A DNA stretch of 64,000 bases from an uncultured Chloroflexia bacterium (GCA_963837425.1 CAWINH010000002.1:355175-419174), one strand, 5' to 3'; shown: positions 10,460 through 64,000, counted from the first letter of the stretch. Made by a program: numbers and translations. Notes: generated by a model from the sequence alone, not told the origin.

Positions 10460-12285
10460 TCAGCTCGACTCGGCCTCGAACGTCGTCTCGCCGGCGGCCG
10501 CCTCCTCGCGCAGCTGCCGCAGCGCGCCCTGGTCGATGCCGCCGAATCGCGGCAGGTCGCGGATGCTGGCGCTGCGCGCCAGGCGCTCCTGCATCTTGCC
10601 CAGCACCAATGCCGAGAAGTCGGGCGCGGCCATCAGGTGGCGCAGGGTGTCCGCGGGGACCTCGAGCAGGATGGTCGGCTCCTGGGCCACGACATCGGCC
10701 GTCCGCGGGCTGCCGGTGAGCGCGGCGATCTCGCCGAACACATCTCCGGCCCCCATGCTCGACAGCGACCGGTACTCGCCCGAGGCGCTCGAGCCGGCCA
10801 CCGTCCGCCGAGAGGACGAAGTAGGCCGAGTTGCCGGTGTCGCCGGCGCGGGTGATGACCGTGCCGCTCTCCGCGTCCAGCACGCGGGCGCTGCTCACCA
10901 GGGCGTCGCGGTCACGCTGCGGGAGCCCGGCCAGGGCCGGGATGTAGCGCCCCAGGGCCTGCACGTCGGCCAGCGTGGCCCGGCGCCCGGTACCCACTCG
11001 CGCGGCGGTCGGGGCGGTGCGCAGCAGCTGGATGGTGCGGCGCCACTCGGCGGCCGGCTGGCCGATCCCCGGCAGCAGCGCGCCGGCCAGGGCGGTGACC
11101 ACCAGGGCCAGCGAGCTGATGAGGAACAGGGCCCGAACATCGAAGACGTCGGCGAAGCCGGCCAGGCCCATCCCGACCAGGTAGACCACGTCGCGCACCA
11201 CGTAGTTGGTGCTGAACACGCGGCCGCGCATCTCGCGCGGAGTGTTGCGCTGGGCGATGAGGCGGCCGGCCACGAAGGAGGGCGCGTTGAGGATGCCGGA
11301 GATGCCGATCAGGCTGATGGCCAGCCAGACGCTGGACGAGAGGGCGTAGGCCACGCCGGCCAGGCCCATCCCCAGGAAGCTGAGGACCAGCCAGCTGCCC
11401 TCGCGCAGCCGCTCCGCGTAGCGGGCCATCAGCAGGCTGCCGACCACGAAGCCGACCGAGGTGATGCCCTCCTGCAGGCCGTACTCGAACTCGGTGGCCT
11501 TGAGCACCTCGATGGCGAACGGCAGGAGCAGCACGTTCTGGAGGCCGAAGATGACCATGATCGGCGTGCGCAGGATGTTCATGGACGCGTAGGACCGGCG
11601 TCTTCCAGATGAACCGCGCGCCAACCGCCAGGTTGCGCACGACGTCGCCCACGGTCGTCTGCTCCTCGACCTCGAGCGGCGCAATGGTGACCAGCAGGAT
11701 CATCAGGCCGGAGAAGAGGAACGTGCCGGCATCGATGTAGAAGACGAGATCGGGCGCAATGCCGATGAGCAGGCCCGCGAGCGCGAAGCCGATGGCGGTC
11801 GACCCGAACTGGGCGATGGCCATCAACGAGTTCGCGGCGGCGAGCTCCTCGTCCGAGGCGATCTCGGGCAGCACGCTGTCGTTGGCCGGATCGAAGAACT
11901 GCTGGACCGATGCGGAGAGCAGCACGATCACGTACAGGCTGATGATGCTGTCGGTGGCGTGCAGGCTGATGGGGATGGCCGCCACCAGCCCGGCGCGCAG
12001 GATGGTGCTCACGACCATGATCGTCTTGCGGTTCCAGCGATCCACGAAGACGCCCGCGATGAGGCCGAAGAGGAGCGTGGGGGCGGCCGAGACCATGAGC
12101 ATGATCCCGACGTTGAGGATCGACCCCGTGCGCTGGAAGACGATGATGCCCGCGGCCAGCGAGGTCAGCGCGTCGCCGATGGTGGAGACCAGCTGCCCGG
12201 TCCACAGGTAGACGAAGAAGCGGTTGCGGAAGACCGCGAATGGGCCGACGGGAGCCGGGGGGGCTGATGGGGAAGCGGCAGTCAC
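10460..12285 (-). pseudogene. MFS transporter fused to a C-terminal cyclic-nucleotide-binding (cNMP) domain, carrying at least 2 frameshifts
   Basis: The 12 TM-type MFS sequence is split over two frames (10912-12285 and the 9048-11684 frame). The cNMP domain is in a third frame (10460-10801): GDVFGEIAALTGSPRTADVVAQEPTILLEVPADTL. Confidence 0.55.
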
Positions 12286-12385
12286 CGGGTTCCTCCGTGT
12301 GGTCGGCGGGCGGGCAGCCGGAGTCCGCGTGGGTCGCAGCGCATTCTGACAGCCGCGGTCGCGCGGTGCGGCCTCGCTCTACCAT

Positions 12386-12977
12386 GGGCGTCATGTCGCA
12401 CGCCGCCGAGCAGTACCCGCTGACGCTGGGCGAGGAACCAGCTTCTGCCCGGCCTGTGGCCGCCCGGTCGAGGCGCGCGTCCTGGAGCCGGACCACCGGC
12501 CGCGCCTGGTCTGCCCCGGGTCACGTCACCTGGCGGAACCCGAGGATGGTGGTCGGCACGCTCCCCATTCGTGACGGCCGGGTCTTCCTGGCGCGGCGCG
12601 CCATCGAGCCGCGCAGCGGCCGGTGGACTCACCCCGGCGGCTTCCTGGAGCTCGGCGAGGCGGCGCAGGAGGGCGCCCGTCGCGAGACGGAGGAGGAGAC
12701 GCAGCTCAAGGTCAGCGTCGGGCGCCTGATCGGCGCCTATTCGCGGCCGCGGGCCGGCGTGGTGACCATCGTCTACGAGGCGGACGTGGTGGGCGGGGAG
12801 CCGCTGCCGGGGGCGGAGACGAGCGAGGTGCAGGCTTTCGGCCCCGAGGAGATCCCGTGGGGCGAGCTGGCCTTCACAACCACCGCGTCGGCGCTGCGCG
12901 ATTGGATCGCCTCGCTGCCGGGCCACGGGCCGCGGTTCGAGCCGGAGCTGTACGTCACCGGCGACCCCGCGGACTGA
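12386..12977 (+). pseudogene. NUDIX hydrolase with an N-terminal zinc ribbon, frameshifted twice around the zinc ribbon
   Basis: The Nudix box GGFLELGEAAQEGARRETEEETQL lies in frame 0. The zinc ribbon FCPACGRPVEARVLEPDHRPRLVCPG is readable only in another frame between about 12440 and 12515. Confidence 0.5.
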
Positions 12978-13019
12978 GGCCCTGGCCGGCCTCCCGCCGT
13001 ACTCGGCCCCGTTCCCCGG

Positions 13020-13400
13020 CTCATTAGGCCCGTTGATGCATCCGCGGGGGAAGCCCGGTTCCGGCCGCGTTTCGTCCCCCTCCCCCACCCCGGCCCATAG
13101 GGGGTCCCTCAACCCGGCCCGTTCCCCGCGCTCCCCTCCCGGCCCCATATGCGGGGATCAGGCCTGCGCCAGGGGGGGTCCCGGGGGACCCCCCCCCCGC
13201 CCCCCGGCGGCCCTCCCTCCCCCGCCCCGCCCACCCGGGCCGGGCCCCGCCCCCGCGCACCCCTCCCCCCCCCCCCCGCGGGGCGGGTGGCCGGGGGGCG
13301 GGGAGCCAGCCGGGCCGGACAACGCCCCGGGCCTGGCCCGGGAAGGGGCGGGCCCTGACCAGGGCCCCGGGAGACGAAAGTCGGCGCGCGACGTCAGCCC
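13020..13400. repeat. C-rich/G-rich low-complexity block with homopolymer runs up to 13 nt and degenerate CCGGCCC-N-GGGG units; candidate G-quadruplex/i-motif tract or assembly artefact
   Basis: Direct reading of the sequence shows cccccccccc, ccccccccccccc, gggggggg and repeated ccggccc...gggg units. The block sits in the ~440 bp convergent intergenic space between the NUDIX gene and the fabF paralog. Confidence 0.5.
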
Positions 13401-13419
13401 GGATGACGCGGGTTCGCGC

Positions 13420-14670
13420 TCAGACCGGGCGGCGGAAGACGGCCACCGCGTTCTGGCCGCCGAAGCCGAAGCCGTTGATGATTGCCACCCCCACGTCCGC
13501 TCTGCGCGCCAGGTTGGGGACGTAGTCCAGGTCGCAGGCGGGGTCGGGCGTCTCGTAGTTGATCGTGGGCGGGATCAGTCCGTCGCGGATGGCCAGCACC
13601 GCGGCCAGGGCGGACATCGCGCCGGCCGCGCCCAGGGTGTGCCCGATCATGCTCTTGTTGCTGCTCACCGCCAGCCTGGGCGCGTGGTCGGCGAAGGCCG
13701 CGTGGATGGCCCTGGTCTCGGTGGCGTCATTGAGCGGGGTGCTGGTGCCGTGGGCGACCACGTAGTCCACTTCCTCCGGCTCGACGCCCGCGTCGCGCAG
13801 GGCGCGCTGCATGGCGCGGGCCGCGCCGTCACCCGGAGGGGTCGGGTGCGCTGATGTGGAACGCGTCGCCGGTCAGCGCACCGCCGGCGATCTCGGCGAT
13901 GACGGTGGCGCCGCGCGATGGGCGTGCTCGGCCGACTCGACCACCAGGATGCCGGCCGCCTCGCCGAAGACGAAGCCGTCGCGTCTGGCATCGAACGGCC
14001 GCGAGGCATGCTCCGGCTCGTCGTTGCGCTTGGAGAGGGCGCCCATGTTGGCGAGCGCGGCGAACGCCACCGGCAGGATCGCGCTCTCGGTGCCCCCGGC
14101 AACCACCGCGTCGGCGTCTCCGTGCTCGATCATGCGCTGCGCCTCCACGAACGCCTGCACCCCCGAGGCACAGGCCGCCACGCTGGTGACCACCGGGCCG
14201 CGGAGCCGGTTCTGGATGCTGATCTGGCAGGCGGCCATGGAGGGGGAGAGCATGGGCACCATGAACGGGCTGACCCGCGTCGGTCCCTGCTCGAGATAGA
14301 CGCGCTCCCCGAGGGCCACCTCGCCGATCCCGCCGCCGCCGGTGTTGACGACCACGGCGATGTCATCCCGGTTGGCGTCGCTGATCTCGAGGCCGGAATC
14401 ATCGATCGCCTGGCGGGCGGCGGCCACGGCCAGCTGGCTGAATCGGCTCATGCGGCGCGCGGCCTTGAAGTCCATCCAGTCGCGTGGCTCGAAGCCCTTC
14501 ACCTCCGCCGCGATCTGGACCTCCTCGCCGGAAGGGTCGTAGGCGGTGATGCGGGCCACGCCGCTGACGCCACCGGTCAGGTTGGACCAGTAGCTGGCCA
14601 CGTCATTGCCGATGGGGCTGATGACGCCCATGCCGGTGACGACGGCTCGACGGGCGGGGTCGCGGCTCAT
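13420..14670 (-). pseudogene. fabF: 3-oxoacyl-ACP synthase II paralog (KAS II), interrupted by two closely spaced compensating frameshifts with an internal stop
   Basis: The N-terminal 265 aa (13873-14670) and C-terminal 130 aa (13420-13812) are in the same frame. Between them, about 75 bp (13813-13915) is in the wrong frames; the correct peptide [28 protein letters not shown] is readable in a third frame. Confidence 0.6.
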
Positions 14671-40142: not shown

Positions 40143-41717
40143 ATGCCCTCGGCTCGCGGCTCGGCCGTCGCCGCGCTCGACATCGCCGCCTATCAGCGCG
40201 AGCTGAGCGCGTTCTACGCGGAGCGTGGCGCGGAATGGTATGCGGCGTTCTCGGGGTTGCAGGACGACCTCGAGCTTGAGCCGATCTATCGGCGACACGC
40301 GAGACTCTTCTCCGAGTCCGCGATCGACGGGCTGCGCCAGGCGGGGGACGGCACCGGTGACGCGGCGCGCCAGGCGCGTGCGCTGCTCGCCTTCGCGGTC
40401 GAGGGCCACCTCGAACGGCGCGTCGTGCATCTCACCGAGGCGATCGGGGAAGCGGAGGCCCGGGCGATCGTCGTGTGGCGTGGCGAGCGGATCCCGTATC
40501 GCGGCGCCTCGATCCGGGTCGCGGAGATGAGCGACCGGCGCGAGCGCAACGCGCTACAGGCGAGCTACCTCGAGGCGGTGGAGGCGATCAACCCCATGCG
40601 CACCGAGCGCTTCGACGGCATGCGCGCGGCGATCGCTGAGCTCGGTTACGCCGGCGAGCTCGAGCTCACGGCCCAGCTCCACGGCGTCGACGTCCGCAGC
40701 CTCGCAGGCGACCTGCGCGGCTTTCTCGCCGAGTCGGAGACGGTCTACTACGCGGCGCTCCGCCGTTACCTGGCAGAGATCGACATCGAGCAGGGCGACG
40801 CATCGACCGCCGACCTCGGCTACCTGCTCCGCGGCCGCGAGTGGGACGCCTGGTTCCCGCAGGCACGTCTCATGCCGGTCATGCGCGCCACGCTGTCAGG
40901 CATCGGCATTGATCTCGACGCGATGACGAATGTGACGCTCGATCTCGAGCCGCGCCCGGCGAAGACGCCGCGCGCCTTCGTCGTCCCGGTCCGCGTGCCG
41001 GGCGACGTGCGCCTCGTGCTCCAGCCGCGTGGCGGCTACGACGACTACGACGGCGTGCTCCACGAGCTCGGTCATCTGCTCCATTTCGCGCATGTCGGTC
41101 CACGGCTCGCCGCGGCATGGCGATTGCTCGGCGACGACTCGGTCACCGAGGGTTACGCGTTCCTGTTCCAGCACCTGATCCATGAGCCGGCATGGCTGGC
41201 GGAGCACCTCGAGATGCCGGACCACGAGATCGGACGCTGGCTGGACTTCGCTGCGTTCCGCCGGCTCGTGTACCTGCGCCGCTACAGCGCCAAGCTGCTT
41301 TACGAGATTCGGCTGCACGGGGACGGGGCGACCCAGGCGTCGCGCGCCTACTACGCCGGCCTGCTCGGCCTGCTGACCGGAGTGCGAACGCCCGAGGAAC
41401 CCTTCCTGGCCGATGTCGACGACCACCTGTACGCGGCCCGCTACCTGCGGGCCTGGATGCTCGAGGGCAGCCTGGCGGCGTCGATGCGTGCGGAGCACGG
41501 GGCGCGGTGGTGGTCGAGCGCCGCAGCCGGGGACACGCTGCGCGCCCTCTGGGCCCGTGGACAGGAGCCGAATGCGCATGACGTGGTTGCGCAACTCGGG
41601 TATGATCGTCTCGACTGGCGACCGGTCTTGCGTCAGATTCGGACGCAGCTCATTGGCGAAATGAGCGGATACGGCGGGCCCAACATCACCACCCGCGCGG
41701 GGACCCGCAAGGTCTGA
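40143..41717 (+). CDS. HExxH zinc metallopeptidase-like protein (M3/oligoendopeptidase-F-like)
   Basis: HELGHLLH followed about 25 aa later by TEGYAF; 524 aa. Confidence 0.4.
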   Translation: MPSARGSAVAALDIAAYQRELSAFYAERGAEWYAAFSGLQDDLELEPIYRRHARLFSESAIDGLRQAGDGTGDAARQARALLAFAVEGHLERRVVHLTEAIGEAEARAIVVWRGERIPYRGASIRVAEMSDRRERNALQASYLEAVEAINPMRTERFDGMRAAIAELGYAGELELTAQLHGVDVRSLAGDLRGFLAESETVYYAALRRYLAEIDIEQGDASTADLGYLLRGREWDAWFPQARLMPVMRATLSGIGIDLDAMTNVTLDLEPRPAKTPRAFVVPVRVPGDVRLVLQPRGGYDDYDGVLHELGHLLHFAHVGPRLAAAWRLLGDDSVTEGYAFLFQHLIHEPAWLAEHLEMPDHEIGRWLDFAAFRRLVYLRRYSAKLLYEIRLHGDGATQASRAYYAGLLGLLTGVRTPEEPFLADVDDHLYAARYLRAWMLEGSLAASMRAEHGARWWSSAAAGDTLRALWARGQEPNAHDVVAQLGYDRLDWRPVLRQIRTQLIGEMSGYGGPNITTRAGTRKV

Positions 41718-57191: not shown

Positions 57192-57267
57192 TGGTGGAGC
57201 TGGGGGGACTCGAACCCCCGACCCCCTGCATGCCATGCAGGTGCTCTCCCAGCTGAGCTACAACCCC
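57192..57267 (-). tRNA. tRNA-Ala (anticodon GGC), CCA-encoded, G3:U70 identity pair
   Basis: The reverse complement reads GGGGTTGTAGCTCAGCTGGGAGAGCACCTGCATGGCATGCAGGGGGTCGGGGGTTCGAGTCCCCCCAGCTCCACCA. This folds into a canonical cloverleaf with anticodon loop ATGGCAT. Confidence 0.85.
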
Positions 57268-57642: not shown

Positions 57643-57953
57643 CCTCGAGCGTCACGCAGCGACGACAACCGCGAACGAACGGTGCCGGATGCCCCGCTCA
57701 CGGGCCGTTTCGTCACCGAGCGACGCCGACGGCGAACGAACCGGGCTGTCCTTCGCCGATAGCGTCGCAGGCTGACGGCCGGCAGGGCGCGGACCGCGGG
57801 CCGCTGCGGGTTCTTTTCCTCGAGCGTCGCCCAGCGACGACAACCGCGATCGAACGGTGCCGGATGCCCCGCGCACGGGCCGTTTCGTCACCGAGCGACG
57901 CCGACGGCGAACGAACCGGGCTGTCCTTCGCCGATAGCGTCGCTGGCTGACTC
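57643..57953. repeat. Two ~135 bp direct repeats (about 96% identical), period about 176 bp, upstream of tRNA-Ala
   Basis: Copy 1 at 57643-57777 and copy 2 at 57819-57953 share cctcgagcgtc..cagcgacgacaaccgcga[a/t]cgaacggtgccggatgccccgc[t/g]cacgggccgtttcgtcaccgagcgacgccgacggcgaacgaaccgggctgtccttcgccgatagcgtcgc[a/t]ggctgac. Confidence 0.7.
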
Positions 57954-58012
57954 CCGGCAGGGCCTGGGAGTTGGCGGCCAGGCGACAGGGTGCAACTCAC
58001 GGCGCGTGCTCG

Positions 58013-58465
58013 TCAGGCGGTGGGCGGTGCCTCGTCGGCAAAGTGCAGCCGCAGGCGTTCGAGGCTGGTCGCGAGGTCGTGCTGGGCGGCGCGCGCCACC
58101 ATCCCCTCGAGCGGAGCCATGAAGACGCTCGCGGCCGTGAACGACATCGCGAACCGCACGCGCGTCGCATCGCCGGCCGGTTCCAGGTCCAGGGTGGCCT
58201 CCGCATGCACGCCCGACACGGTGCTCTCGAGGACGAGGCGCCGATCCGGCTCGTACGCCGTCAGCGTCAGGTCGGCGGTGAAACGCTGCCCGAGCAGGTC
58301 ACGGACGACGCGCGCCGTCGATCCACGGCCGATGGGAGCGGGCGACGTCAGCGTCGCCGAGATGATGCCCGTCTGCCAGGCGGGGAGGTTAACTGGATCG
58401 GCGACGAACGCGAAGACGGTGCCCGGAGGTGCGGGGATCGTGGCCTCGGCGTCGGTACGCTGCAT
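58013..58465 (-). CDS. SRPBCC (START/polyketide-cyclase-like) family protein
   Basis: 150 aa; weak START/Bet v1-type pattern FAFVADPVNLPAWQTGI near the N-terminus. Confidence 0.45.
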   Translation of the reverse strand: MQRTDAEATIPAPPGTVFAFVADPVNLPAWQTGIISATLTSPAPIGRGSTARVVRDLLGQRFTADLTLTAYEPDRRLVLESTVSGVHAEATLDLEPAGDATRVRFAMSFTAASVFMAPLEGMVARAAQHDLATSLERLRLHFADEAPPTA

Positions 58466-58533
58466 CGGTGAACCCTAACGCCTGGAGGGCGAGGCGTGGG
58501 CGGCGGCCGCGTGGTGCCGTATCCTGCTTCGAC

Positions 58534-59307
58534 ATGGGTCGCTCGCTCGGGCTCAGCCTCGCCCTCATCTCGGTTGTGCTCCTCGCGTCGTGCGGCGGCG
58601 CCTCGCCGACGCCTGCCGATCCCCGGGCCACGGTGACGAGCGGGATCGAGGCCACGCTCGGCGCGCACACCTTCCACCTGGCCGCCACCGTGGACGGCAC
58701 GCTGAACGTGGCCGAAACGGGCGGGACGATCACGCTGGACGGAACGACGCTCGAGGGTGATGTCGACATCGATCGCGGGCGGACGCACCTGACCTTCGCC
58801 GTTCCGGCGTTGATGGGGATCAGCGGCGAGGTGATCACGATTGGCGCCGATGACTACCTGAAGACGAGCGTCACGGGGTCCGGCTGGGTGCACTCGCAGG
58901 CGACCGCCGGCGACCCGCTCAGCGACGTGACTGATCCGAACGCGGCCCTGACCGCCATCGAGGACCTCATGGATGCGGCCGGCGTCACGCTCGTCGCGAT
59001 GGACAGGACCGATTGCAGTGCCGGTCCCTGCTCCCACGTGGCCATGACCATCCCGGCCGACCAGCTGCAGGGAGCGGCGGATCTAGCCGGAGGGCTCGTC
59101 CCCAGCGCCGCATTCGCCGATGGGCTCGTGCTGGACCTCTACTTCTCCACGAGCGATGGGCGGCTCGCCGAGGTCTCGACCGGGATCGACAGTGCATCGG
59201 TCGGGTCGCTGACGCTTGGCGTCACCTTCAGCGCCTGGGACCAGGCGCTGATCATCGAGGCGCCTCCCGCTTCCGACATCCAGCAGGGGACCGGCCTTCC
59301 CTTCTAG
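58534..59307 (+). CDS. Lipoprotein of unknown function
   Basis: Lipobox LLASCGG followed by a beta-rich 230 aa domain. Confidence 0.5.
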   Translation: MGRSLGLSLALISVVLLASCGGASPTPADPRATVTSGIEATLGAHTFHLAATVDGTLNVAETGGTITLDGTTLEGDVDIDRGRTHLTFAVPALMGISGEVITIGADDYLKTSVTGSGWVHSQATAGDPLSDVTDPNAALTAIEDLMDAAGVTLVAMDRTDCSAGPCSHVAMTIPADQLQGAADLAGGLVPSAAFADGLVLDLYFSTSDGRLAEVSTGIDSASVGSLTLGVTFSAWDQALIIEAPPASDIQQGTGLPF

Positions 59308-59596: not shown

Positions 59597-59974
59597 ATGC
59601 TCCGCGCGTCCGAAGACATCTACGCCATGCAGGCCTCGATCCTGCGGACTCTCGGCAGTCCCCGGCGACTCGAGATCGTTCACCTGCTGGGCGAGGGTCC
59701 GCTCGAGGTTCATCGGCTCGCCCGGCTCCTCGAGATCGCTCAGCCGACCGTCTCCCAGCACCTTGCCGCGATGCGCGCGGCCGGCCTGGTGGAGCCGCTG
59801 CGCGACGGGAGAGAGGTCCGGTACCGACTCACCGACGATGCCATCCGCCAGGCCTGTGACCAGATGCGCGAATTCCTGTACCGGCGCCTGAGCCGATTGA
59901 GCCTTCTTGCGGCTCCCACCCATGACGGCCACGCGGAGCAGGTCGCTCCGCTCGTCGCGGGGAGCCGCAGGTAA
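59597..59974 (+). CDS. ArsR/SmtB-family transcriptional regulator
   Basis: LRTLGSPRRLEIVHLLGEGPLEVHRLARLLEIAQPTVSQHLAAMRAAGLV. Confidence 0.65.
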   Translation: MLRASEDIYAMQASILRTLGSPRRLEIVHLLGEGPLEVHRLARLLEIAQPTVSQHLAAMRAAGLVEPLRDGREVRYRLTDDAIRQACDQMREFLYRRLSRLSLLAAPTHDGHAEQVAPLVAGSRR

Positions 59975-60010: not shown

Positions 60011-60382
60011 ATGGCAGATCACGAGAAGCTGGTCATCATGGCCACCCACGGTCCCGAGGACCCCGAGCTGGCCACGATCCCGTTCGTCATGGCCTGCGCC
60101 GCCCTTGCCTCGGATGTCGAGGTCGTGATGGGCTTCCAGGCCAACGGTGTGTGCCTCGTGCATCGCGGCGAAGCCGAGCACGTGGCCGCCCCGGAGTTCC
60201 CGCCGCTCACCAAGCTCATGACCGATTTCGTCGAGCTGGGCGGAACGATGCTCGTCTGCGGCCCATGCATCAAGAGCCGCGAGATGCAGCCCGAGCTCGA
60301 TCTGGTCGATGGCGCCGAGGTCGTCGCCGCAGGGCGATTCGTCGCGGAGATCACGTCGGCCACCAACAGCCTCGTCTACTAG
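60011..60382 (+). CDS. DsrE/DsrF-like sulfur-relay protein
   Basis: LVIMATHGPEDPE...GGTMLVCGPCIKSRE. Confidence 0.6.
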   Translation: MADHEKLVIMATHGPEDPELATIPFVMACAALASDVEVVMGFQANGVCLVHRGEAEHVAAPEFPPLTKLMTDFVELGGTMLVCGPCIKSREMQPELDLVDGAEVVAAGRFVAEITSATNSLVY

Positions 60383-60405: not shown

Positions 60406-60675
60406 ATGACCCTCACCGCACCACAGACGACCGAGCTCGAAGGGCTCAGCGCAGCAAAGATCATCGACGCCCGTGGCAGCGCCTGCCCCGGCCCGCTCCT
60501 CGAGGCGAAGAAGGGGATGGGTACCGTCGCGATCGGCGATGTCATCGAGATCTGGTCGAGTGATCCCGCCACCAAGAAGGACATCGGCGCCTGGTCGGCC
60601 AAGGTCGGTCATGAGTTCCTGGGCTCCGTCGAGGCCAGCGGCTACGACCGCGTCCTCGTTCGGCGCGGCAAGTAG
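60406..60675 (+). CDS. TusA-like sulfur carrier protein
   Basis: IDARGSACPGPLLEAKKG (CPxP motif); AAAGGAG RBS. Confidence 0.6.
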   Translation: MTLTAPQTTELEGLSAAKIIDARGSACPGPLLEAKKGMGTVAIGDVIEIWSSDPATKKDIGAWSAKVGHEFLGSVEASGYDRVLVRRGK

Positions 60676-60690
60676 CGAGGCCACGGTGCC

Positions 60691-61143
60691 ATGAGCGCGC
60701 TCTCCGTCATCGAGAAGCCCCCGGAGGTGGGGGACGGTCGGGATCGTAAGCCCCGGATCCTGGTCTTCTCCACGAACAACATCTCCGATCCGGGCATCGA
60801 CATGGCGGGGAGCGCGCACATGCACTACTCGACCGCCGTCACCGTGATCAGCCTGCCGTGCACCAGCGGCATCAAGCCGCGCTGGATCGTGCATGCCATC
60901 GAGCGCGGATTCGATGGCGTCTTCATCGCATCCGATGGAGAAGAGTGCGCCTACCTGGCCGATTGCAGCGCGCGCGCGGCGCGAATCGTGGCGCGCGCCC
61001 AGGAGCTGCTCACCGAGCGCGGATTCGAGCCGCAGCGATTGAAGATGGCGGCCATCTGCTCGGTCTGCGCCGAGGCGTTCACGAAGCACATGCGGCAGTT
61101 CTCCGAGAGCCTGTCAGCGCTCGGGCCGTCGAGCAAGGGGTGA
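60691..61143 (+). CDS. MvhD/FlpD-like iron-sulfur subunit, degenerate at the N-terminal Cys motif
   Basis: RILVFSTNNISDPGIDMAG lines up with the MvhD CNWCSYAGADxAG region but lacks the Cys residues; later ISLPCTSGIKP...ADGVFIASDGEECAYLADC. Confidence 0.5.
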   Translation: MSALSVIEKPPEVGDGRDRKPRILVFSTNNISDPGIDMAGSAHMHYSTAVTVISLPCTSGIKPRWIVHAIERGFDGVFIASDGEECAYLADCSARAARIVARAQELLTERGFEPQRLKMAAICSVCAEAFTKHMRQFSESLSALGPSSKG

Positions 61144-61146
61144 GCC

Positions 61147-63882
61147 ATGGACTATGACGTTCTCGTCATCGGCGGCGGCATCGGCGGCATGGAGTCGGCC
61201 CTGAAGCTCGGGGACATGGGCTACTCGGTCGCCATGGTCGAGAAGGAGGCCAGCGTCGGCGGACGCATGATCCTGCTGAGCAAGGTCTTCCCGACGCTCG
61301 ACTGCGCGAGCTGCATCTCAACGCCGAAGATGGCGGCGTCGGTCCATCACGACAACATCACGCCGTTCACCTACGCCGAGGTGTCCGGCATCCGGCGAAC
61401 TCCGGACGGTCATTTCCGCGCGACGGTGCGCCAGAAGCCCCGATTCGTGGATACGGACGCATGCACCGGTTGCCAGCTCTGCGAGCTGGCCTGCACGGTG
61501 GCGGTGCCAGACCAGTTCAACGCGGACCTCGTCGCGCGCCGCGCGGCGTACATCCCGTTCCCGCAGGCGGTCCCCAAGAAGGCGGTCATCGAGCGTGCCG
61601 GCACCTCCCCGTGCTCGTACACCTGCCCGGCCGGGATCAAGGCCCACGGCTACGTCTCGCTCATCCGCAGCGGCGAGTATGAGAAGGCGTTCCAGCTCGT
61701 CCTCGACGCCACGCCACTGGTCGGGACCCTGGGTCGCGCCTGCTACGCGCCGTGCGAGGCCGACTGCAGCCGAGGATCCCTCGAGGGACCCTTGCCCATT
61801 CGCCGTCTGAAGCGGTTCGCGGCCGACGAGCACTACGCCAGCCATGACGGGCCGGGCGTCGAGGCGCCGCCGGCCAACGGGCACCGGGTCGCCGTTATCG
61901 GCTCCGGACCGGCGGGCCTGACCGCCGCCTGGCAGCTGGCCCGCTCGGGGTACGGCGTGAAGATCTTCGAGGGGGCCTCCGAGCCGGGCGGCATGCTGCG
62001 GTTCGCGATCCCCGGCTATCGGCTTCCGTCCGTGGTCGTGGAGCGCGACATTGCCAACGTCACCGCGCTCGGGGTCGAGATCGCATGCGACTCCCCGGTG
62101 CATGACCTCGAGGCGCTCCATGCGGACGGCTACGACGCGATCCTCGTGGCGACCGGCACGCCGCGCTCGCAGGTCCTCGGCGTCCCGGGCGAGGATCTGG
62201 CCGGCGTGGCCACCGGCCTGGAGTTCCTCCGCGACGTGAAGCTCGAGACGGCACCCGATCTCACCGGAAAGCGGGTAGTGATCGTGGGTGGCGGCAACGT
62301 GGCCATGGATGCCGCGCGCACCGTCCGTCGGCTGGGTGCGGCGGAGACCATCGTCGCCTACCGCCGCGGTCGCGAGGAGCTGCCGGCTCATGCCGCCGAG
62401 GTGGCCGATGCCGAAGCCGAAGGCGTGCGATTCGAGCTGCAGGTGGCCCCCGCCGAGGTGCTGGGAGATGCGCAGGGGCGCGTCACCGGGCTGCGCTGCG
62501 TGCGGATGGCGCTCGGCGCGCCGGATGACTCCGGCCGCCGCCGGCCGGAGGCGATCCCCGGCAGCGAGCACGTCATTGCCTGCGAGGCCGTGATCGCCGC
62601 GATCGGCATGTCGCCGGATCTCGACGCCTTCCCCGGAGAGCCGCTGGTAGACGAACGAGCCTTCGCCGCCGACCCGCGCACGCTCCAGACCGCGGTGCCC
62701 TGGGTCTTCGCCGCCGGCGACGCGGTCAGCGGAGCGTCGGACATCACCCGCGCCGTAGGGGCCGGGCGGCGGGCGGCGTACATGATCGACCACTGGATCA
62801 GCGACAGCACACTGGCGGGTGCGCAGTTTGACGCGATCGACGATCGCCTCGTGGTCGTGGATCGGTCGAGCGTAATCGCCCGGCAGTCGGCCTACACTCG
62901 CCACGACCCGACGCCGCCGGGGATCTCCCTGGTCGCCGAGCCGGACGGCTTTGCCGAGCTCGAGGCGCCGCTCACCGAGGACGAGGCGCGCGCCGCGGCC
63001 GGACGCTGCCTGGACTGCGGCGTCTGCTCCGAGTGCGGCGAGTGCATCGCCGCCTGCCCGGCGGACGCTATCCACCTCGACATGCGCGAAACCGAGCGCG
63101 AGATCGAGGTCGGCGCTGTCGTTCTCTCGACCGGCTACAAGCTGTTCGCCGCCGACCTCAAGCCGGAGTATGGCTATGGAACCTACAAGAACGTGATCAC
63201 CGGCATGCAGATGGACCGGCTGCTGGCGCCCACGCGGCCGTACAACACGATCCTCCGACCGGGCGACGGCAAGGTCCCGGAGCGGATTGGCTACGTGATG
63301 TGCACCGGCTCGCGCGACAAGACCGTCGGAAACCCCCTCTGCTCCCGCTTCTGCTGCATGTACTCCATCAAGCAGAACGAGCTGATCATGGGCGCCCTGC
63401 CGCTCGCCGACGTGACGGTCCACTACATGGACATCCGGGCCGCGGGAAAGCGCTACAACGAGTTCTACGAGGGGGCCCGCTCAATGGGCGCCAACTACGT
63501 GCGCGGTCGCGTGGCCGAGATCACCGAGAAGGAGAACGGTGACCTGCTCGTCAAGTACGAGGATCTCGACAACGGTGGGGTGATCTCCGAGGCCGAGTAC
63601 GACCTCGTCGTCCTCGCCGTCGGCGTCCAGCCCAACCGCGACGTGGAGACCCTCTTCTCCGGCGGCGGCCCGGCCCTCACCGACTCCTACTACGTCGCGG
63701 AGGCGGACGAGGACCTCAACCCGGGCCAGACCAGCCTACCCGGGGTCTACGTGGCGGGTGCGGCCTCCGGGGCCAAGGACATCGCCGAATCGATCCTGCA
63801 CGCAGGCGCGGCGGTCGCCCAGGTCTCGGCGCACCTCGAGCGCGAGCGCACGATCGCGGCGGGCGAGAAGGTGCCGGCATGA
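61147..63882 (+). CDS. HdrA-like FAD/Fe-S flavoprotein with an inserted GltD/NfnB-like NAD(P)H-binding module
   Basis: DVLVIGGGIGGMESALKL; CTGCQLCELAC; the GltD-type segment CPAGIKAHGYVSLI...GRACYAPCEADC...VAVIGSGPAGLTAAW...KRVVIVGGGNVAMDAA; the ferredoxin motif CLDCGVCSECGECIAACP; and the HdrA hallmark GYVMCTGSRDKTVGNPLCSRFCCMYSIKQN. Confidence 0.65.
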   Translation: MDYDVLVIGGGIGGMESALKLGDMGYSVAMVEKEASVGGRMILLSKVFPTLDCASCISTPKMAASVHHDNITPFTYAEVSGIRRTPDGHFRATVRQKPRFVDTDACTGCQLCELACTVAVPDQFNADLVARRAAYIPFPQAVPKKAVIERAGTSPCSYTCPAGIKAHGYVSLIRSGEYEKAFQLVLDATPLVGTLGRACYAPCEADCSRGSLEGPLPIRRLKRFAADEHYASHDGPGVEAPPANGHRVAVIGSGPAGLTAAWQLARSGYGVKIFEGASEPGGMLRFAIPGYRLPSVVVERDIANVTALGVEIACDSPVHDLEALHADGYDAILVATGTPRSQVLGVPGEDLAGVATGLEFLRDVKLETAPDLTGKRVVIVGGGNVAMDAARTVRRLGAAETIVAYRRGREELPAHAAEVADAEAEGVRFELQVAPAEVLGDAQGRVTGLRCVRMALGAPDDSGRRRPEAIPGSEHVIACEAVIAAIGMSPDLDAFPGEPLVDERAFAADPRTLQTAVPWVFAAGDAVSGASDITRAVGAGRRAAYMIDHWISDSTLAGAQFDAIDDRLVVVDRSSVIARQSAYTRHDPTPPGISLVAEPDGFAELEAPLTEDEARAAAGRCLDCGVCSECGECIAACPADAIHLDMRETEREIEVGAVVLSTGYKLFAADLKPEYGYGTYKNVITGMQMDRLLAPTRPYNTILRPGDGKVPERIGYVMCTGSRDKTVGNPLCSRFCCMYSIKQNELIMGALPLADVTVHYMDIRAAGKRYNEFYEGARSMGANYVRGRVAEITEKENGDLLVKYEDLDNGGVISEAEYDLVVLAVGVQPNRDVETLFSGGGPALTDSYYVAEADEDLNPGQTSLPGVYVAGAASGAKDIAESILHAGAAVAQVSAHLERERTIAAGEKVPA

Positions 63883-64000
63883 CCGCGGCGCAGCCAGCCC
63901 GTCGCATCGGCGTCTACGTCTGCCACTGCGGCGGCAACATCTCCGACTACGTCGACGTGGAGCAGGTGGCCGCTGCAGCCGCGCGCGAGGGGGACGTCGT
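63879..64000 (+). CDS. hdrA: Second HdrA-like gene (partial, N-terminus only), starting with the HdrA N-terminal domain motif
   Basis: RIGVYVCHCGGNISDYVDVEQV matches the IGVFVCHCGTNIAG N-terminus of HdrA; ATGA overlap with the upstream gene. Confidence 0.45.
   Translation, partial: MTAAQPARRIGVYVCHCGGNISDYVDVEQVAAAAAREGDV

Follow-up and report, generated by a model that had tools for sequence, protein, structure and literature searches.

The window, which is the whole 64-kb stretch of DNA that was analysed, ends in a cluster of genes on the plus strand, see Table 1. The cluster starts with a regulator and runs through genes for two small sulfur-handling-type proteins and an MvhD-type electron-transfer protein to HdrL, a large HdrA-like flavoprotein, and the first codons of a second HdrA gene, hdrA2. 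HdrL is encoded by a single intact open reading frame of 911 amino acids, and its GC content at the three codon positions (0.70, 0.50 and 0.90) is typical of the other genes of the window. The gene starts 3 nt past the stop codon of mvhD, carries a Shine-Dalgarno-like AAGGGG upstream of its start and shares an ATGA overlap with the start of hdrA2. Each motif quoted for this protein in the preliminary description is present in the translation.

Table 1. Genes of the cluster and domains of HdrL, with positions in the window.
Feature	Positions	Strand	Basis
ArsR/SmtB-family regulator, first cluster gene	59597..59974	+	Pfam HTH_5, E = 2e-15
DsrE-family sulfurtransferase-like protein, 123 aa, VCGPC motif	60011..60382	+	Pfam DsrE, E = 8.5e-14
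TusA sulfur carrier, CPGP cysteine motif	60406..60675	+	Pfam TusA, E = 1.7e-18
MvhD/FlpD-type [2Fe-2S] electron-transfer protein	60691..61143	+	Pfam FlpD, E = 1.9e-30, full profile length
HdrL / type III HdrA, entire 911-aa fusion	61147..63882	+	ORF, Pfam, PDB alignments, homologue conservation
HdrA thioredoxin-reductase-like FAD domain, first part, aa 1-95	61147..61431	+	aligned to 8rvv_A from 140, 9sfi_A from 143
Inserted ferredoxin domain, first half, aa 96-150	61432..61596	+	aligned to 8rvv_A up to 287
NfnB/NfnL/GltD-like module, aa 151-560	61597..62826	+	Pfam Fer4_20 and Pyr_redox_2; PDB matches
Poorly conserved linker, then permuted NfnB N-terminal segment, aa 561-626	62827..63024	+	aligned to 9bov_A, 8oh5_C
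Inserted ferredoxin domain, second half, aa 627-650	63025..63096	+	aligned to 8rvv_A from 285
HdrA FAD domain, second part, aa 651-911	63097..63882	+	aligned to HdrA up to ~559-565
hdrA2 5' end, N-terminal FeS domain (RIGVYVCHCGGNISDYVDV)	63879..64000	+	ATGA overlap; HdrA NCBIfam profiles; ends with the window

The regulator passes the NCBIfam cutoff of HTH_metalloreg (79.6 bits, cutoff 55). The sulfite-sensing repressor BigR ranks second among the NCBIfam models, at 54.6 bits and under the cutoff of 155. It has a GAAGGAG motif upstream of its ATG and lies upstream in most Chloroflexota loci. The DsrE gene is found in many Chloroflexota loci, while actinobacterial loci instead have a DrsE_2 protein between mvhD and hdrL. 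An AAGGAG stands 7 nt upstream of the tusA ATG at 60406, and TusA is present in essentially every related locus that is long enough, with 'DARG.aCPGPlLeAKK' kept. The MvhD protein also hits the HdrA2 NCBIfam model, in its C-terminal MvhD part, and is collinear in related loci. Sulfur genes mark the surroundings: TusA is a constant neighbour, DsrE or DrsE_2 and rhodanese often occur, and TauE lies close by.

An HdrA core split by an NADPH-type module

Two separate parts of HdrL (aa 2-150 and 622-895) align to residues 140-287 and 285-559 of the methanogen HdrA 8rvv_A, with E about 1e-101 to 3.4e-101. The scores against the NCBIfam models are below the cutoffs (450 bits against 1100 for HdrA2, 322 and 318 bits against 1300 and 1400 for HdrA); judged by these profiles, HdrL is a homologue and not an orthologue of the CoB-CoM heterodisulfide reductase HdrA. 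The alignment to HdrA begins at HdrA residue 140 and stops near 559-565, i.e., HdrL is without the N-terminal FeS domain and the C-terminal 2x[4Fe-4S] ferredoxin domain of type I HdrA. Both of these end domains are found in orthologues of the next gene, hdrA2.

The first part of the FAD domain carries the GGGIGG dinucleotide fold and the motif FPTLDCASC, whose C53 and C56 are invariant in all 120 of the best homologues. C56 is the equivalent of HdrA Cys197, the role of which is described in PMC9012536, and falls on position 197 of 9sfi_A, printed there as X. The second part contains the [4Fe-4S] motif C719-TGSRD...C732-SRF-C736-C737, K742 and GVYVAGAASGAKDI. The four cysteines align to the CxGSRD-x(n)-CSxxCC motif of HdrA and are invariant in 120/120 homologues. 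K742, also invariant (120/120), corresponds to Lys409, which contacts N5 of the bifurcating FAD in HdrA (PMC6405883).

Between these parts lie two ferredoxin-like motifs. The first, C106-x2-C109-x2-C112-x3-C116, is followed by AAYIPFPQAVP, and its cysteines are kept in 120/120 close homologues and in 79/79 of a divergent set. The second is C627-x2-C630-x2-C633-x3-C637-P, invariant in 120/120. The preliminary description read them as a partial ferredoxin and a later HdrA ferredoxin. Both are there, but not as separate domains: aligned to HdrA, they are the two halves of its single inserted ferredoxin domain, parted by an insert of ~470 residues (aa 151-621).

Pfam finds Fer4_20 (E = 4e-16) and Pyr_redox_2 in the insert. 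HdrL 150-552 aligns to NfnB (4ylf_B 41-459, E about 1.3e-79 to 3.5e-79), and a longer region, HdrL 154-633, to Bfu-type NfnA (9bov_A 102-574, E about 1e-99 to 5e-99), which at 336.9 bits is the best-scoring solved homologue; StnC (8oh5_C) follows with E = 1.8e-93. By these alignments the nearest relative of the insert is the NADPH-entry module found in Bfu-type NfnA and in StnC. The module has the cluster cysteines C156, C160, C199, C203 and C207, and two more, C621 and C624, lie in the segment FAELEAPLTEDEARAAAGRC621LDC624 and are invariant in 120/120, so that seven invariant cysteines belong to the NfnL-type clusters. In NfnB and GltD this CxxC pair is N-terminal, while in HdrL it stands after the module. 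When the segment was moved ahead of the module in a synthetic construct, the match to NfnB 20-458 and GltD 2-439 became contiguous and the scores higher. On this alignment evidence, the insert is circularly permuted relative to NfnB and GltD. The assignment to GltD in the preliminary description named the right family, but an NfnB/NfnL-like module of the Bfu NfnA/StnC type, in permuted order, describes it better.

The module shares two [4Fe-4S] clusters, an FAD fold and an NADPH fold with GltD and the NfnB/NfnL of NfnAB (4ylf, 5jca). The FAD fold is G252-S-G-P-A-G257 with R292 (>=95% conserved), and the NADPH fold is G381-G-G-N-V-A386 with Y405-R-R407; GGGNVA and the YRR residues Y405, R406 and R407 are found in 120/120. 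In NfnB, Arg187 contacts the FAD N5 and two conserved arginines bind the 2'-phosphate (PMC6405883). R292 would be the equivalent of Arg187, and which arginines of HdrL bind the phosphate is inferred from the same comparison. Together with the cofactor logic of GxGxxA versus GxGxxG (PMC12054007), these invariant motifs favour NADPH over NADH. Unlike NfnB and GltD, the module has the permuted order, no NfnA or GltB partner, and a lysine at a cluster position. The glutamate of 'LERF' is a ligand of one cluster in NfnB. At this position HdrL has a lysine, Lys222, as does Bfu NfnA ('LKRF'), which leaves one NfnL-type cluster with three ligands assigned by sequence.

Bfu-type NfnA (9bov, 9n5u) and StnC (8oh5) share the permuted order, the RCLxCG segment past the module and the lysine in 'LKRF' with HdrL. 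In those enzymes, however, the module is flanked by a [2Fe-2S] N-terminal domain and an Fdh/NuoG-like domain, and it supplies a NuoF-type FMN bifurcation site. An independent proposal is that the insert keeps ferredoxin out and reconnects the clusters with NAD(P)H (PMC12054007).

By sequence comparison, HdrL consists of an HdrA FAD core in which a circularly permuted NfnB-like NADPH:FAD module interrupts the inserted ferredoxin domain. The boundaries against solved structures are sharp, and the domain order given in the preliminary description holds in Pfam and in the structural alignments, as do its two FAD folds and its one NAD(P)H fold, which is of NADPH type. The protein has the ligands of five [4Fe-4S] clusters, of which the split ferredoxin domain and the NfnL-type module account for two each and the CxGSRD...CSxxCC site for the fifth.

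A search for the same fusion shows that it is widespread. The best 120 database matches have 887-940 aa, >=97% query coverage and 71-75% identity, and the 22 cofactor cysteines of HdrL are invariant in all of them; in 78 divergent fusions the cofactor ligands are 98-100% conserved. Relatives occur in at least 401 species-representative genomes, mostly Limnocylindria and Actinomycetota, and divergent ones with the full architecture in Syntrophaceae, Dehalogenimonas and Caldisericota. In an archaeal survey type III HdrA looked rare, with nine sequences; in bacteria the design is common, as the count above is for this HdrL subtype alone. The preliminary description already thought a fusion made by frameshift unlikely, and this holds. 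An artificial fusion from a frameshift or misassembly is refuted and has next to no probability, since collinear full-length homologues exist in hundreds of independent assemblies, the host-domain halves flank the insert exactly (HdrA residues 287 and 285 at the junctions), a nested insertion of this kind cannot arise by frameshift, and nothing was found in favour.

HdrA2, the membrane subunit and known systems

The preliminary description stated that the N-terminal HdrA domain missing from HdrL is carried by the next gene, and this is borne out, as the first 40 codons of hdrA2 match positions 1-32 of HdrA NCBIfam profiles. Only ~120 nt of hdrA2 are inside the window, and its full-length features are those of orthologues in related loci, which have 580-600 aa. 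They align to 5odc_A residues 5-234 and 310-652, i.e., they have the N-terminal FeS and C-terminal ferredoxin domains and are without the inserted ferredoxin domain, Cys197 and Lys409. Positions 194 and 197 hold N and E, and position 409 holds H, Q or A (73/73 sequences). HdrL and HdrA2 are exactly complementary in domains and ligands, and the same is true of six divergent HdrL-HdrA2 pairs, following the rule proposed for tandem HdrA paralogs (PMC9012536). From this complementarity we predict an obligate heterodimer of asymmetric build, where the N-terminal cluster of HdrA2 would be completed by C56 of HdrL.

In relatives, the operon reads TusA-MvhD-HdrL-HdrA2-(~82 aa protein)-QmoC-like membrane FeS protein, and this core keeps its gene order in practically all of the 80 loci that reach far enough. 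The window stops before the QmoC-like gene, which is observed in relatives of at most 75% identity. The protein matches positions 5-359 of 360 in the NCBIfam qmoC model (E = 5e-57, 193.9 bits, under the equivalog cutoff of 300) and has two CxxCxxCxxxCP motifs and conserved histidines. The QmoC-like gene holds the position of HdrBC, and the loci of this clade contain no CCG-domain subunit, hence no evident catalytic site for a sulfur substrate. Cousins with 44-48% identity keep TusA-MvhD-HdrL-HdrA2-small protein, but end in HdrC and HdrB or a fused Fer4 and CCG protein, i.e., an HdrCB or HdrD-like protein (cousin loci L082, L085 and L088). These end subunits are disulfide/persulfide-reducing modules. 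The swap parallels the known alternation of QmoABC, QmoAB-HdrCB and QmoAB-HdrD (PMC10504309). It also implies a thiol/disulfide couple among the partners.

The architecture of HdrL is already known. HdrL was named in 2009 (PMC2702500), ANME-1 HdrA9/10/11 with the same design were described in 2022 (PMC9012536) and the 'type III HdrA' class in 2025 (PMC12054007). What is added here is the permutation of the insert, the NADPH-type motifs, the complementarity with HdrA2 and the QmoC-like/TusA/MvhD operon. With HdrL of Desulfobacterium autotrophicum and Syntrophobacter fumaroxidans, type III HdrA and ANME-1 HdrA9-11, the protein shares a ~500-aa NfnB/GltD-like module within the inserted ferredoxin domain and two flavin folds (PMC2702500, PMC5947623, PMC9012536, PMC12054007). 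An adjoining mvhD is also shared, just upstream here and after hdrL in D. autotrophicum (PMC2702500). However, the protein studied here is a minimal 900-aa form, without the N- and C-terminal HdrA domains or a second NAD-binding/HdrA unit, while deltaproteobacterial HdrL has ~1,495 aa. It differs further in its complementary HdrA2 partner, in a terminal subunit that is QmoC-like and not HdrBC, in the linked TusA and DsrE, and in its carriers, which are Limnocylindria and Actinomycetota. For archaeal type III HdrA, NADH has been proposed, unlike the NADPH-type motif found here. To the best of our knowledge, no member of the HdrL/type III HdrA group has been biochemically characterised.

Methanogen MvhADG-HdrABC (5odc, 8rvv) has the same FAD core, CxGSRD...CSxxCC cluster, Lys409, Cys197, inserted ferredoxin domain and MvhD partner. 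It is a homodimer, in contrast to the predicted heterodimer of complementary paralogs, and here an NADPH module would stand at the ferredoxin exit, there is no hydrogenase, and this clade has no HdrB. The blueprint of QmoABC, including 'type II' HdrA-like Qmo, is also similar to the unit of the relatives, with two different HdrA-like flavoproteins and an HdrC-like FeS/NarI-like membrane fusion subunit, and its terminal subunit likewise alternates between QmoC, HdrCB and HdrD (PMC10504309). Unlike in QmoABC, one flavoprotein has an NfnB-like insert, MvhD is separate and not fused to QmoB, and no aprBA is linked in the stretches surveyed. Both HdrL and HdrA2 are nearer to methanogen HdrA than to canonical QmoA and QmoB, neither of which is among the listed best families.

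Proposed electron path and alternatives

We suggest that HdrL is probably, though far from certainly, the NADPH-coupling subunit of a Qmo-like complex that joins NADP(H) and menaquinone with a third partner, which is probably related to sulfur. In the heterodimer, electrons would pass between NADP(H), the NfnL-type FAD, two [4Fe-4S] clusters, the two [4Fe-4S] clusters of the split ferredoxin domain and the HdrA-type FAD of HdrL. The NfnL-type FAD would act as two-electron/one-electron converter for NADPH, at what is the ferredoxin exit of canonical HdrA. A second branch would lead from the HdrA-type FAD to menaquinone by way of the HdrC-like clusters that the QmoC-like subunit carries, and MvhD with the C-terminal ferredoxin domain of HdrA2 would form a third port. 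The third partner may be sulfane sulfur on TusA or DsrE, with electron flow in either direction. The adjacency of TusA could instead mean regulation or cofactor handling. Any bifurcation or confurcation would take place at the HdrA-type FAD of HdrL.

A plainer machine is conceivable, a linear NADPH:menaquinone oxidoreductase without bifurcation, in which electrons pass from NADPH over the FeS chain and flavins to the QmoC-like subunit and menaquinone, while MvhD and TusA are accessory, e.g., in regulation or maturation. Among solved structures, the insert most resembles a plain NADPH-entry module, GltD-type modules are commonly NAD(P)H input adaptors (PMC12054007), and the clade is without a CCG catalytic subunit. 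[quoted passage not shown] With three FAD folds, ~12 FeS clusters if each conserved Cys motif binds as in homologues, and probably hemes, the complex would also be an elaborate machine for the job of far simpler type II NADH dehydrogenases. We therefore consider this reading unlikely.

Two bifurcation sites, at the NfnB-like FAD and the HdrA FAD, have been suggested for ANME-1 HdrA-NfnB fusions (PMC9012536). The b-FAD of NfnB bifurcates in NfnAB, and its N5-contacting Arg187 is kept as R292. This arginine is, however, also kept in Bfu-type NfnA, where that FAD does not bifurcate: within NfnABC it only oxidises NADPH, and the bifurcation site lies elsewhere (PMC11829005). The insert is nearer to this non-bifurcating NfnA than to NfnSL. 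Neither GltB nor an NfnA/NfnS-like partner, which could supply the high-potential branch needed by the NfnB FAD, is found in the operon or within ~10 kb in relatives. A second site is thus improbable.

The Qmo blueprint of two HdrA-like subunits and a QmoC-like membrane subunit (PMC10504309) could also mean a canonical QmoABC serving APS reductase in dissimilatory sulfate reduction or sulfite oxidation. This seems quite improbable, as L081, a relative with annotated genes, has no aprBA, sat or dsr within ~10 kb of the operon, and the genes surveyed upstream in the window, at 38-59 kb, include no Apr, Sat or Dsr families. Moreover, the QmoC-like score is under the equivalog cutoff, canonical QmoA has no NfnB insert, and it is Limnocylindria and Actinomycetota that carry the unit. 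In organisms without Apr or Dsr, 'type II' Qmo proteins that are HdrA-like and of unknown role do exist (PMC10504309).

Membership of the sulfur-oxidising sHdr system, which combines sHdrB1/B2, sHdrC1/C2 and LbpA with TusA and DsrE, is very improbable. As in sHdr loci (PMC11094781), TusA, DsrE and rhodanese are encoded alongside, and sHdrA (6tjr_A) is a detectable homologue (E = 5e-39). However, methanogen HdrA is a far stronger match (E about 1e-101), sHdrA is minimal (349 aa) and without ferredoxin or NfnB modules, and the related loci of this clade contain neither the CCG subunits HdrB1/B2 nor LbpA or another lipoate-binding protein.

Going beyond the Qmo-like, NADPH-coupled complex proposed above, it can be speculated that the TusA-MvhD-HdrL-HdrA2-QmoC-like unit is a membrane-bound flavin-based bifurcating or confurcating complex in Chloroflexota and Actinomycetota from soil and freshwater, with sulfane sulfur on TusA/DsrE as a mid-potential couple. 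We hold this specific version to be doubtful. Two electrons would then pass downhill to menaquinone while two are driven uphill to NADP+, or both flows would be reversed, and NADPH could be gained from sulfur compounds without reverse electron transport. So far, HdrA-type electron bifurcation is, to our knowledge, tied to strict anaerobes. If true, the complex would be the first such system outside them, with NADP+ instead of ferredoxin as low-potential acceptor, and HdrA-type bifurcation could extend to widespread soil lineages.

The compact and strictly conserved unit of five to six genes yields predictions at the level of residues: C56 should complete the cluster of the partner, Lys409 should be present in one subunit only, and the cofactor motif should be of NADPH type. 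The quinone-linked terminal subunit is predicted to be interchangeable with HdrCB or an HdrD-like protein. The operon unit is also present in an isolate, Propionicimonas sp. T2.31MG-18, which makes the role of an NAD(P)H-bearing HdrA experimentally approachable.

Nested architecture of HdrL

The 911-residue protein HdrL (also called type III HdrA) is encoded in one ORF. Against solved structures, its residues 2-150 and 622-895 align to residues 140-287 and 285-559 of HdrA (8rvv_A, E = 3.4e-101), residues 150-552 to T. maritima NfnB (4ylf_B 41-459, E = 3.5e-79), and residues 154-633 to both Bfu-type NfnA (9bov_A 102-574, E = 4.7e-99) and StnC (8oh5_C 102-573, E = 6e-93). The junctions on either side of the insert fall at HdrA residues 287 and 285, so the host sequence is otherwise continuous; HdrL is a nested domain insertion. 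The chimeric HdrA/GltD polypeptide of the preliminary description is thus confirmed by an intact ORF and by structure-based boundaries; the domain mapping it proposed with HHpred was obtained from these structure comparisons, in which the HdrA halves flank the NfnB-like insert, and its interpretation is supported overall. In Pfam, an FAD fold is matched at residues 4-40, Fer4_20 at 153-231 and Pyr_redox_2 at 247-539, with weak 4Fe-4S hits around 100-117 and 627-654.

Table. Features of HdrL, of the window and of related loci (L numbers, in locus coordinates).
Feature	Position	Strand	Remarks
HdrA FAD domain, first part	HdrL aa 1-95		GGGIGG; FPTLDC53ASC56
Inserted ferredoxin domain, first half	HdrL aa 96-150		C106/109/112/116, then AAYIPFPQAVP
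NfnB-like module	HdrL aa 151-560		cluster cysteines 156, 160, 199, 203, 207; FAD fold G252SGPAG257; NAD(P)H fold G381GGNVA386, then Y405RR407
Linker	HdrL aa 561-626		poorly conserved, then FAELEAPLTEDEARAAAGRC621LDC624
Inserted ferredoxin domain, second half	HdrL aa 627-650		C627/630/633/637-P
HdrA FAD domain, remainder	HdrL aa 651-911		C719TGSRD...C732SRFC736C737, then GVYVAGAASGAKDI
524-aa ORF	40143-41717	+	coding-looking, high GC3
tRNA-Ala(GGC)	57192-57267	-
Direct repeat, first copy	57643-57788
Direct repeat, second copy	57818-57963
SRPBCC/polyketide-cyclase-like gene	58013-58465	-
292-aa ORF	58429-59307	+	coding-looking, high GC3
ArsR/SmtB regulator	59597-59974	+	BigR-like, below cutoff
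DsrE-family protein	60011-60382	+
TusA	60406-60675	+	CPGP motif
MvhD/FlpD	60691-61143	+
HdrL	61147-63882	+	911 aa
HdrA2, 5' end	63879 onward	+	N-terminal FeS domain; cut by window edge
Small protein	L018 14475-14723
Small protein	L081 14445-14696
Small protein	L082 12472-12708
Small protein	L085 8286-8570
C-L/V-E fusion	L082 8001-10736		HdrCB-linked
DrsE_2-family protein	L077 9488-9967		Actinomycetota
Genes after the operon	L081 16809-22709		PadR, hemerythrin, OsmC, rhodanese, DUF302, second ArsR, TauE
Divergent HdrL-HdrA2-MvhD set and neighbours	L087 3595-14353
Second HdrL unit	L017 ~11124-14132	-	Limnocylindrales; partly cut

An artificial fusion caused by a frameshift or misassembly, which the preliminary description had considered unlikely, is ruled out by conservation and by topology, since no frameshift can yield a nested domain insertion. 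The best 120 matches taken from a collection of 5.8 billion proteins are 887-940 residues long and share 71-75% identity at a query coverage of at least 97%; none of the 22 motif cysteines varies among them, and K742, the equivalent of HdrA Lys409, is likewise invariant, as are Y405, R406 and R407 (each 120/120). Where these matches are named, it is as "heterodisulfide reductase subunit A(-like polyferredoxin)" or "FAD-dependent oxidoreductase". As for the consistent codon usage that had been claimed, GC at the three codon positions (0.70/0.50/0.90) resembles that of other genes of the window (GC 70%). The start codon lies 3 nt past the upstream stop codon and is preceded by AAGGGG, and the stop codon overlaps the next start as ATGA.

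The ligands in the sequence imply two FAD, in agreement with the two flavins suggested earlier, together with one NADPH site and five [4Fe-4S] clusters. The residue aligned with C56 is HdrA position 197, given in 9sfi_A as X (unidentified residue). R292 is the counterpart of Arg187 of T. maritima NfnB, which touches N5 of b-FAD (PMC6405883).

Permutation and probable nucleotide specificity of the insert

The alignments of native HdrL begin at residue 41 of NfnB and residue 24 of GltD, missing the N-terminal helix and CxxC segment of these proteins. With a synthetic construct, in which HdrL residues 596-625 were moved ahead of residues 152-552, the scores rise for NfnB (4ylf_B, 271.5 to 284.4 bits, now covering 20-458), Pf NfnL (5jca_L, 245.5 to 253.4 bits), GltD (2vdc_G, 183.2 to 200.4 bits, now covering 2-439; 6s6s_G, 183.5 to 200.6 bits) and DPD (1h7x_A and others, 115.4 to 122.7 bits), and FAELEAPLTEDEARAAAGRCLDC is aligned with NfnB FEEVALGYTLEEALEEAQRCLQC. 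The score of Bfu NfnA (9bov_A) falls from 336.9 to 325.5 bits, because this protein, like StnC, has the segment after the module. The rise for NfnB and GltD together with the fall for Bfu NfnA places the insert in the permuted subtype of NfnABC and Stn. Hence, the GltD module of the preliminary description holds as a two-cluster/FAD/NADPH-type module, but its order is circularly permuted compared to GltD and is closest to Bfu NfnA. A true glutamate synthase or Nfn function was rejected for HdrL, as neither GltB nor NfnA was found as a partner in the operon or, in relatives, inside some 10 kb.

At the position of the Glu in the "LERF" of NfnSL/NfnB, which we take to be a ligand of one cluster, HdrL has a Lys (K222, 119/120 homologues), and so does Bfu NfnA. 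In Csac NfnABC the FAD of the module merely oxidises NADPH, and bifurcation is assigned to an FMN "flavobicluster" elsewhere (PMC11829005).

The type of nucleotide has been argued from GxGxxA versus GxGxxG folds (PMC12054007), and in NfnB two conserved arginines hold the 2'-phosphate of NADP+ (PMC6405883). The HdrL clade looks NADPH-specific, because it has a GxGxxA-type fold and the two conserved arginines as in NfnB. About one third of the divergent HdrL fusions, the HdrCB-linked cousin L082 among them, carry C-L/V-E in place of YRR after the NAD(P)H fold; with its acidic residue this motif looks NADH-type, so nucleotide specificity seems to have switched within the family.

The operon and the HdrL-HdrA2 pair

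The genes of the cluster stand close together, separated by 36, 23, 15 and 3 nt before the ATGA overlap. Housekeeping genes lie upstream (CTP synthase, Rho, amidase, Obg, ComEC, LeuRS, a methyltransferase and a GNAT acetyltransferase). Between 56.5 and 64 kb of the window, scans for Rfam families and tRNAs return the tRNA-Ala alone and no riboswitch or leader tied to the operon. Between this tRNA and the SRPBCC/polyketide-cyclase-like gene there is a direct repeat of 146 nt (95% identical, 175 nt start to start), which matches no Rfam family at gathering score. The 524-aa and 292-aa ORFs have no Pfam family at E <= 1e-5.

The part of the operon beyond the window edge is read from relatives of at most 75% identity. 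In 80 fetched loci the order TusA, MvhD, HdrL, HdrA2, a protein of about 82 residues and a protein of about 380 residues is collinear where the contig allows. HdrA2 of the relatives (580-600 residues) aligns to 5odc_A 5-234 and 310-652, so that precisely the inserted ferredoxin domain is missing. Cys194 and Cys197 are replaced by N and E, and the Lys409 position is taken by H, Q or A (Lys in 0/73 sequences).

In tandem HdrA genes, one paralog retains the N-terminal FeS domain and is without Cys197, a ligand donated across the HdrA dimer (Chadwick et al., PMC9012536). The HdrL/HdrA2 pair obeys this rule exactly: the N-terminal HdrA domain is absent from HdrL and, as noted in the preliminary description, carried by the next gene. 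[quoted passage not shown] N-terminal domain and Cys197 remain complementary in six divergent pairs, and HdrA2 directly follows HdrL in every divergent locus of the ~900-aa class examined. We predict from these sequences that HdrL and HdrA2 form a heterodimer.

The ~380-residue protein matches the NCBIfam qmoC model end to end (5-359 of 360 positions, E = 5e-57), but its 193.9 bits stay under the equivalog cutoff of 300 bits. Its features are a pair of CxxCxxCxxxCP motifs with homology to HdrC (8rvv_C, E = 8e-14), a NarI-like membrane part and several conserved histidines. The small protein (78-94 residues) is always located between hdrA2 and the terminal subunit, whether QmoC-like, HdrC or HdrD-like; it contains no cysteines, conserves the pattern GP.T.P.IA...W.M.M+.YG, and gave only weak wHTH matches in Pfam and none in NCBIfam. 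It may serve as an assembly factor, or else be a subunit not yet characterised.

Downstream of the QmoC-like gene a rhodanese is frequent, and at a distance of a few kb there are TauE and another group of ArsR, DUF302 and rhodanese genes. In the close relative L081 the genes after the operon, a region beyond the end of the window, are of the kind usually seen in the handling of reactive sulfur species; Apr, Sat and Dsr families are absent within about 10 kb in this locus. Membership of the operon in canonical Qmo-Apr or sHdr systems is considered unlikely.

The order in Chloroflexota is ArsR-DsrE-TusA-MvhD-HdrL, and in Actinomycetota TusA-MvhD-[DrsE_2-family protein]-HdrL (L077, also L036-L038, L052, L056, L057, L067, L069, L070 and L079); no ArsR was detected upstream in the actinobacterial loci.

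Proposed electron path, other contexts and distribution

HdrA chimeras with an NAD(P)H module have been published three times, as HdrL (PMC2702500), ANME-1 HdrA9/10/11 (PMC9012536) and "type III HdrA" (PMC12054007), so the architecture itself is already known. For the operon of Limnocylindria and Actinomycetota, with a minimal HdrL, a complementary HdrA2, a QmoC-like protein, TusA and DsrE, we found no description in the open-access literature, which is weak evidence. What appears new is this combination, the permutation and the details of complementarity; the operon context is of moderate interest although the architecture is known.

In canonical HdrA, one branch from the FAD runs through the FAD-domain cluster to HdrC and then HdrB, the other by way of the N-terminal cluster and then the inserted ferredoxin domain, ending at free ferredoxin (PMC9012536). 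Mapped onto this scheme, the parts encoded by the operon would form one asymmetric machine, in which (i) the low-potential exit is wired to the NADPH/FAD module via four [4Fe-4S] clusters, (ii) the "HdrC" branch leads to the quinone-reactive membrane domain and (iii) MvhD is the remaining third port. The NfnL-type FAD would link the hydride of NADPH, which carries two electrons, to transfer of single electrons, and the Lys409-bearing FAD of HdrL would be the branching point. A similar proposal exists for archaeal type III HdrA, with ferredoxin access blocked and the clusters repurposed for NAD(P)H (PMC12054007). A third partner of the thiol/persulfide type is suggested by the strict linkage of TusA and by the terminal subunits of cousin clades, which are of the CCG type. 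Chemistry and direction of flow are here inferred, since the clade of the window is without a CCG subunit: NADPH and menaquinol could confurcate onto an acceptor of mid potential, or electrons from a mid-potential donor could be bifurcated to menaquinone and NADP+.

The terminal subunit varies. L082 (48% identity) reads DrsE_2-TusA-MvhD-HdrL-HdrA2-78 aa-HdrC-HdrB(CCG), and L085 (44%) rhodanese-TusA-MvhD-HdrL-HdrA2-94 aa-HdrD-like (Fer4+CCG); homology of the small protein extends across these loci (E = 1e-18 and 5e-8). These changes mirror the QmoABC, QmoAB-HdrCB and QmoAB-HdrD alternation (PMC10504309), and are consistent with the HdrA-like "type II" Qmo proteins, of unknown role, in organisms without Apr or Dsr (PMC10504309). 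The other HdrL contexts are the classical ones: HdrCB-HdrL-MvhD-HdrA-MvhD-MetVF in Syntrophaceae, an HdrD-like protein and HdrL beside Wood-Ljungdahl genes in Dehalogenimonas, and a cluster with an aldehyde:ferredoxin oxidoreductase and an NfnA/PyrK-like gene. In L087, aldehyde:ferredoxin oxidoreductase and a polyferredoxin precede a divergent HdrL-HdrA2-MvhD set, and behind it come ThiS and an NfnA/PyrK-like protein with the domains FAD_binding_6, NAD_binding_1 and DHODB_Fe-S_bind, which might be a true partner of the NfnA type for the NfnB-like insert.

The database search for the same fusion proposed earlier finds relatives in at least 401 genomes (one per species). The best 80 of these are mostly Chloroflexota MAGs (Limnocylindria/Limnocylindrales) with about 14 Actinomycetota (Propionibacteriaceae, Dermatophilaceae, Nocardioidaceae, Nanopelagicales, Cellulomonas and, as an isolate, Propionicimonas sp. 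T2.31MG-18). When 1.84 billion cluster representatives were searched exhaustively and without a profile, 5,252 matches fell below 1e-30. Among the matches listed, 78 divergent sequences (34-48% identity) have the complete nested architecture, with split-ferredoxin and NfnL-type cysteines 98-100% conserved. They fall into classes of ~900-930, ~1,015-1,150 (many with an additional N-terminal domain of ~145 residues) and ~1,400-1,530 residues, and among the carriers with names are Deltaproteobacteria, Syntrophaceae included (1,495 aa), Dehalogenimonas sp. WBC-2 (1,118 aa), Caldisericota and WOR-3.

On the L017 contig the first operon is followed, about 4.5 kb downstream, by a second, inverted and partly cut copy of qmoC-like, small ORF, hdrA2 and hdrL, which suggests that the unit is duplicated in some genomes.
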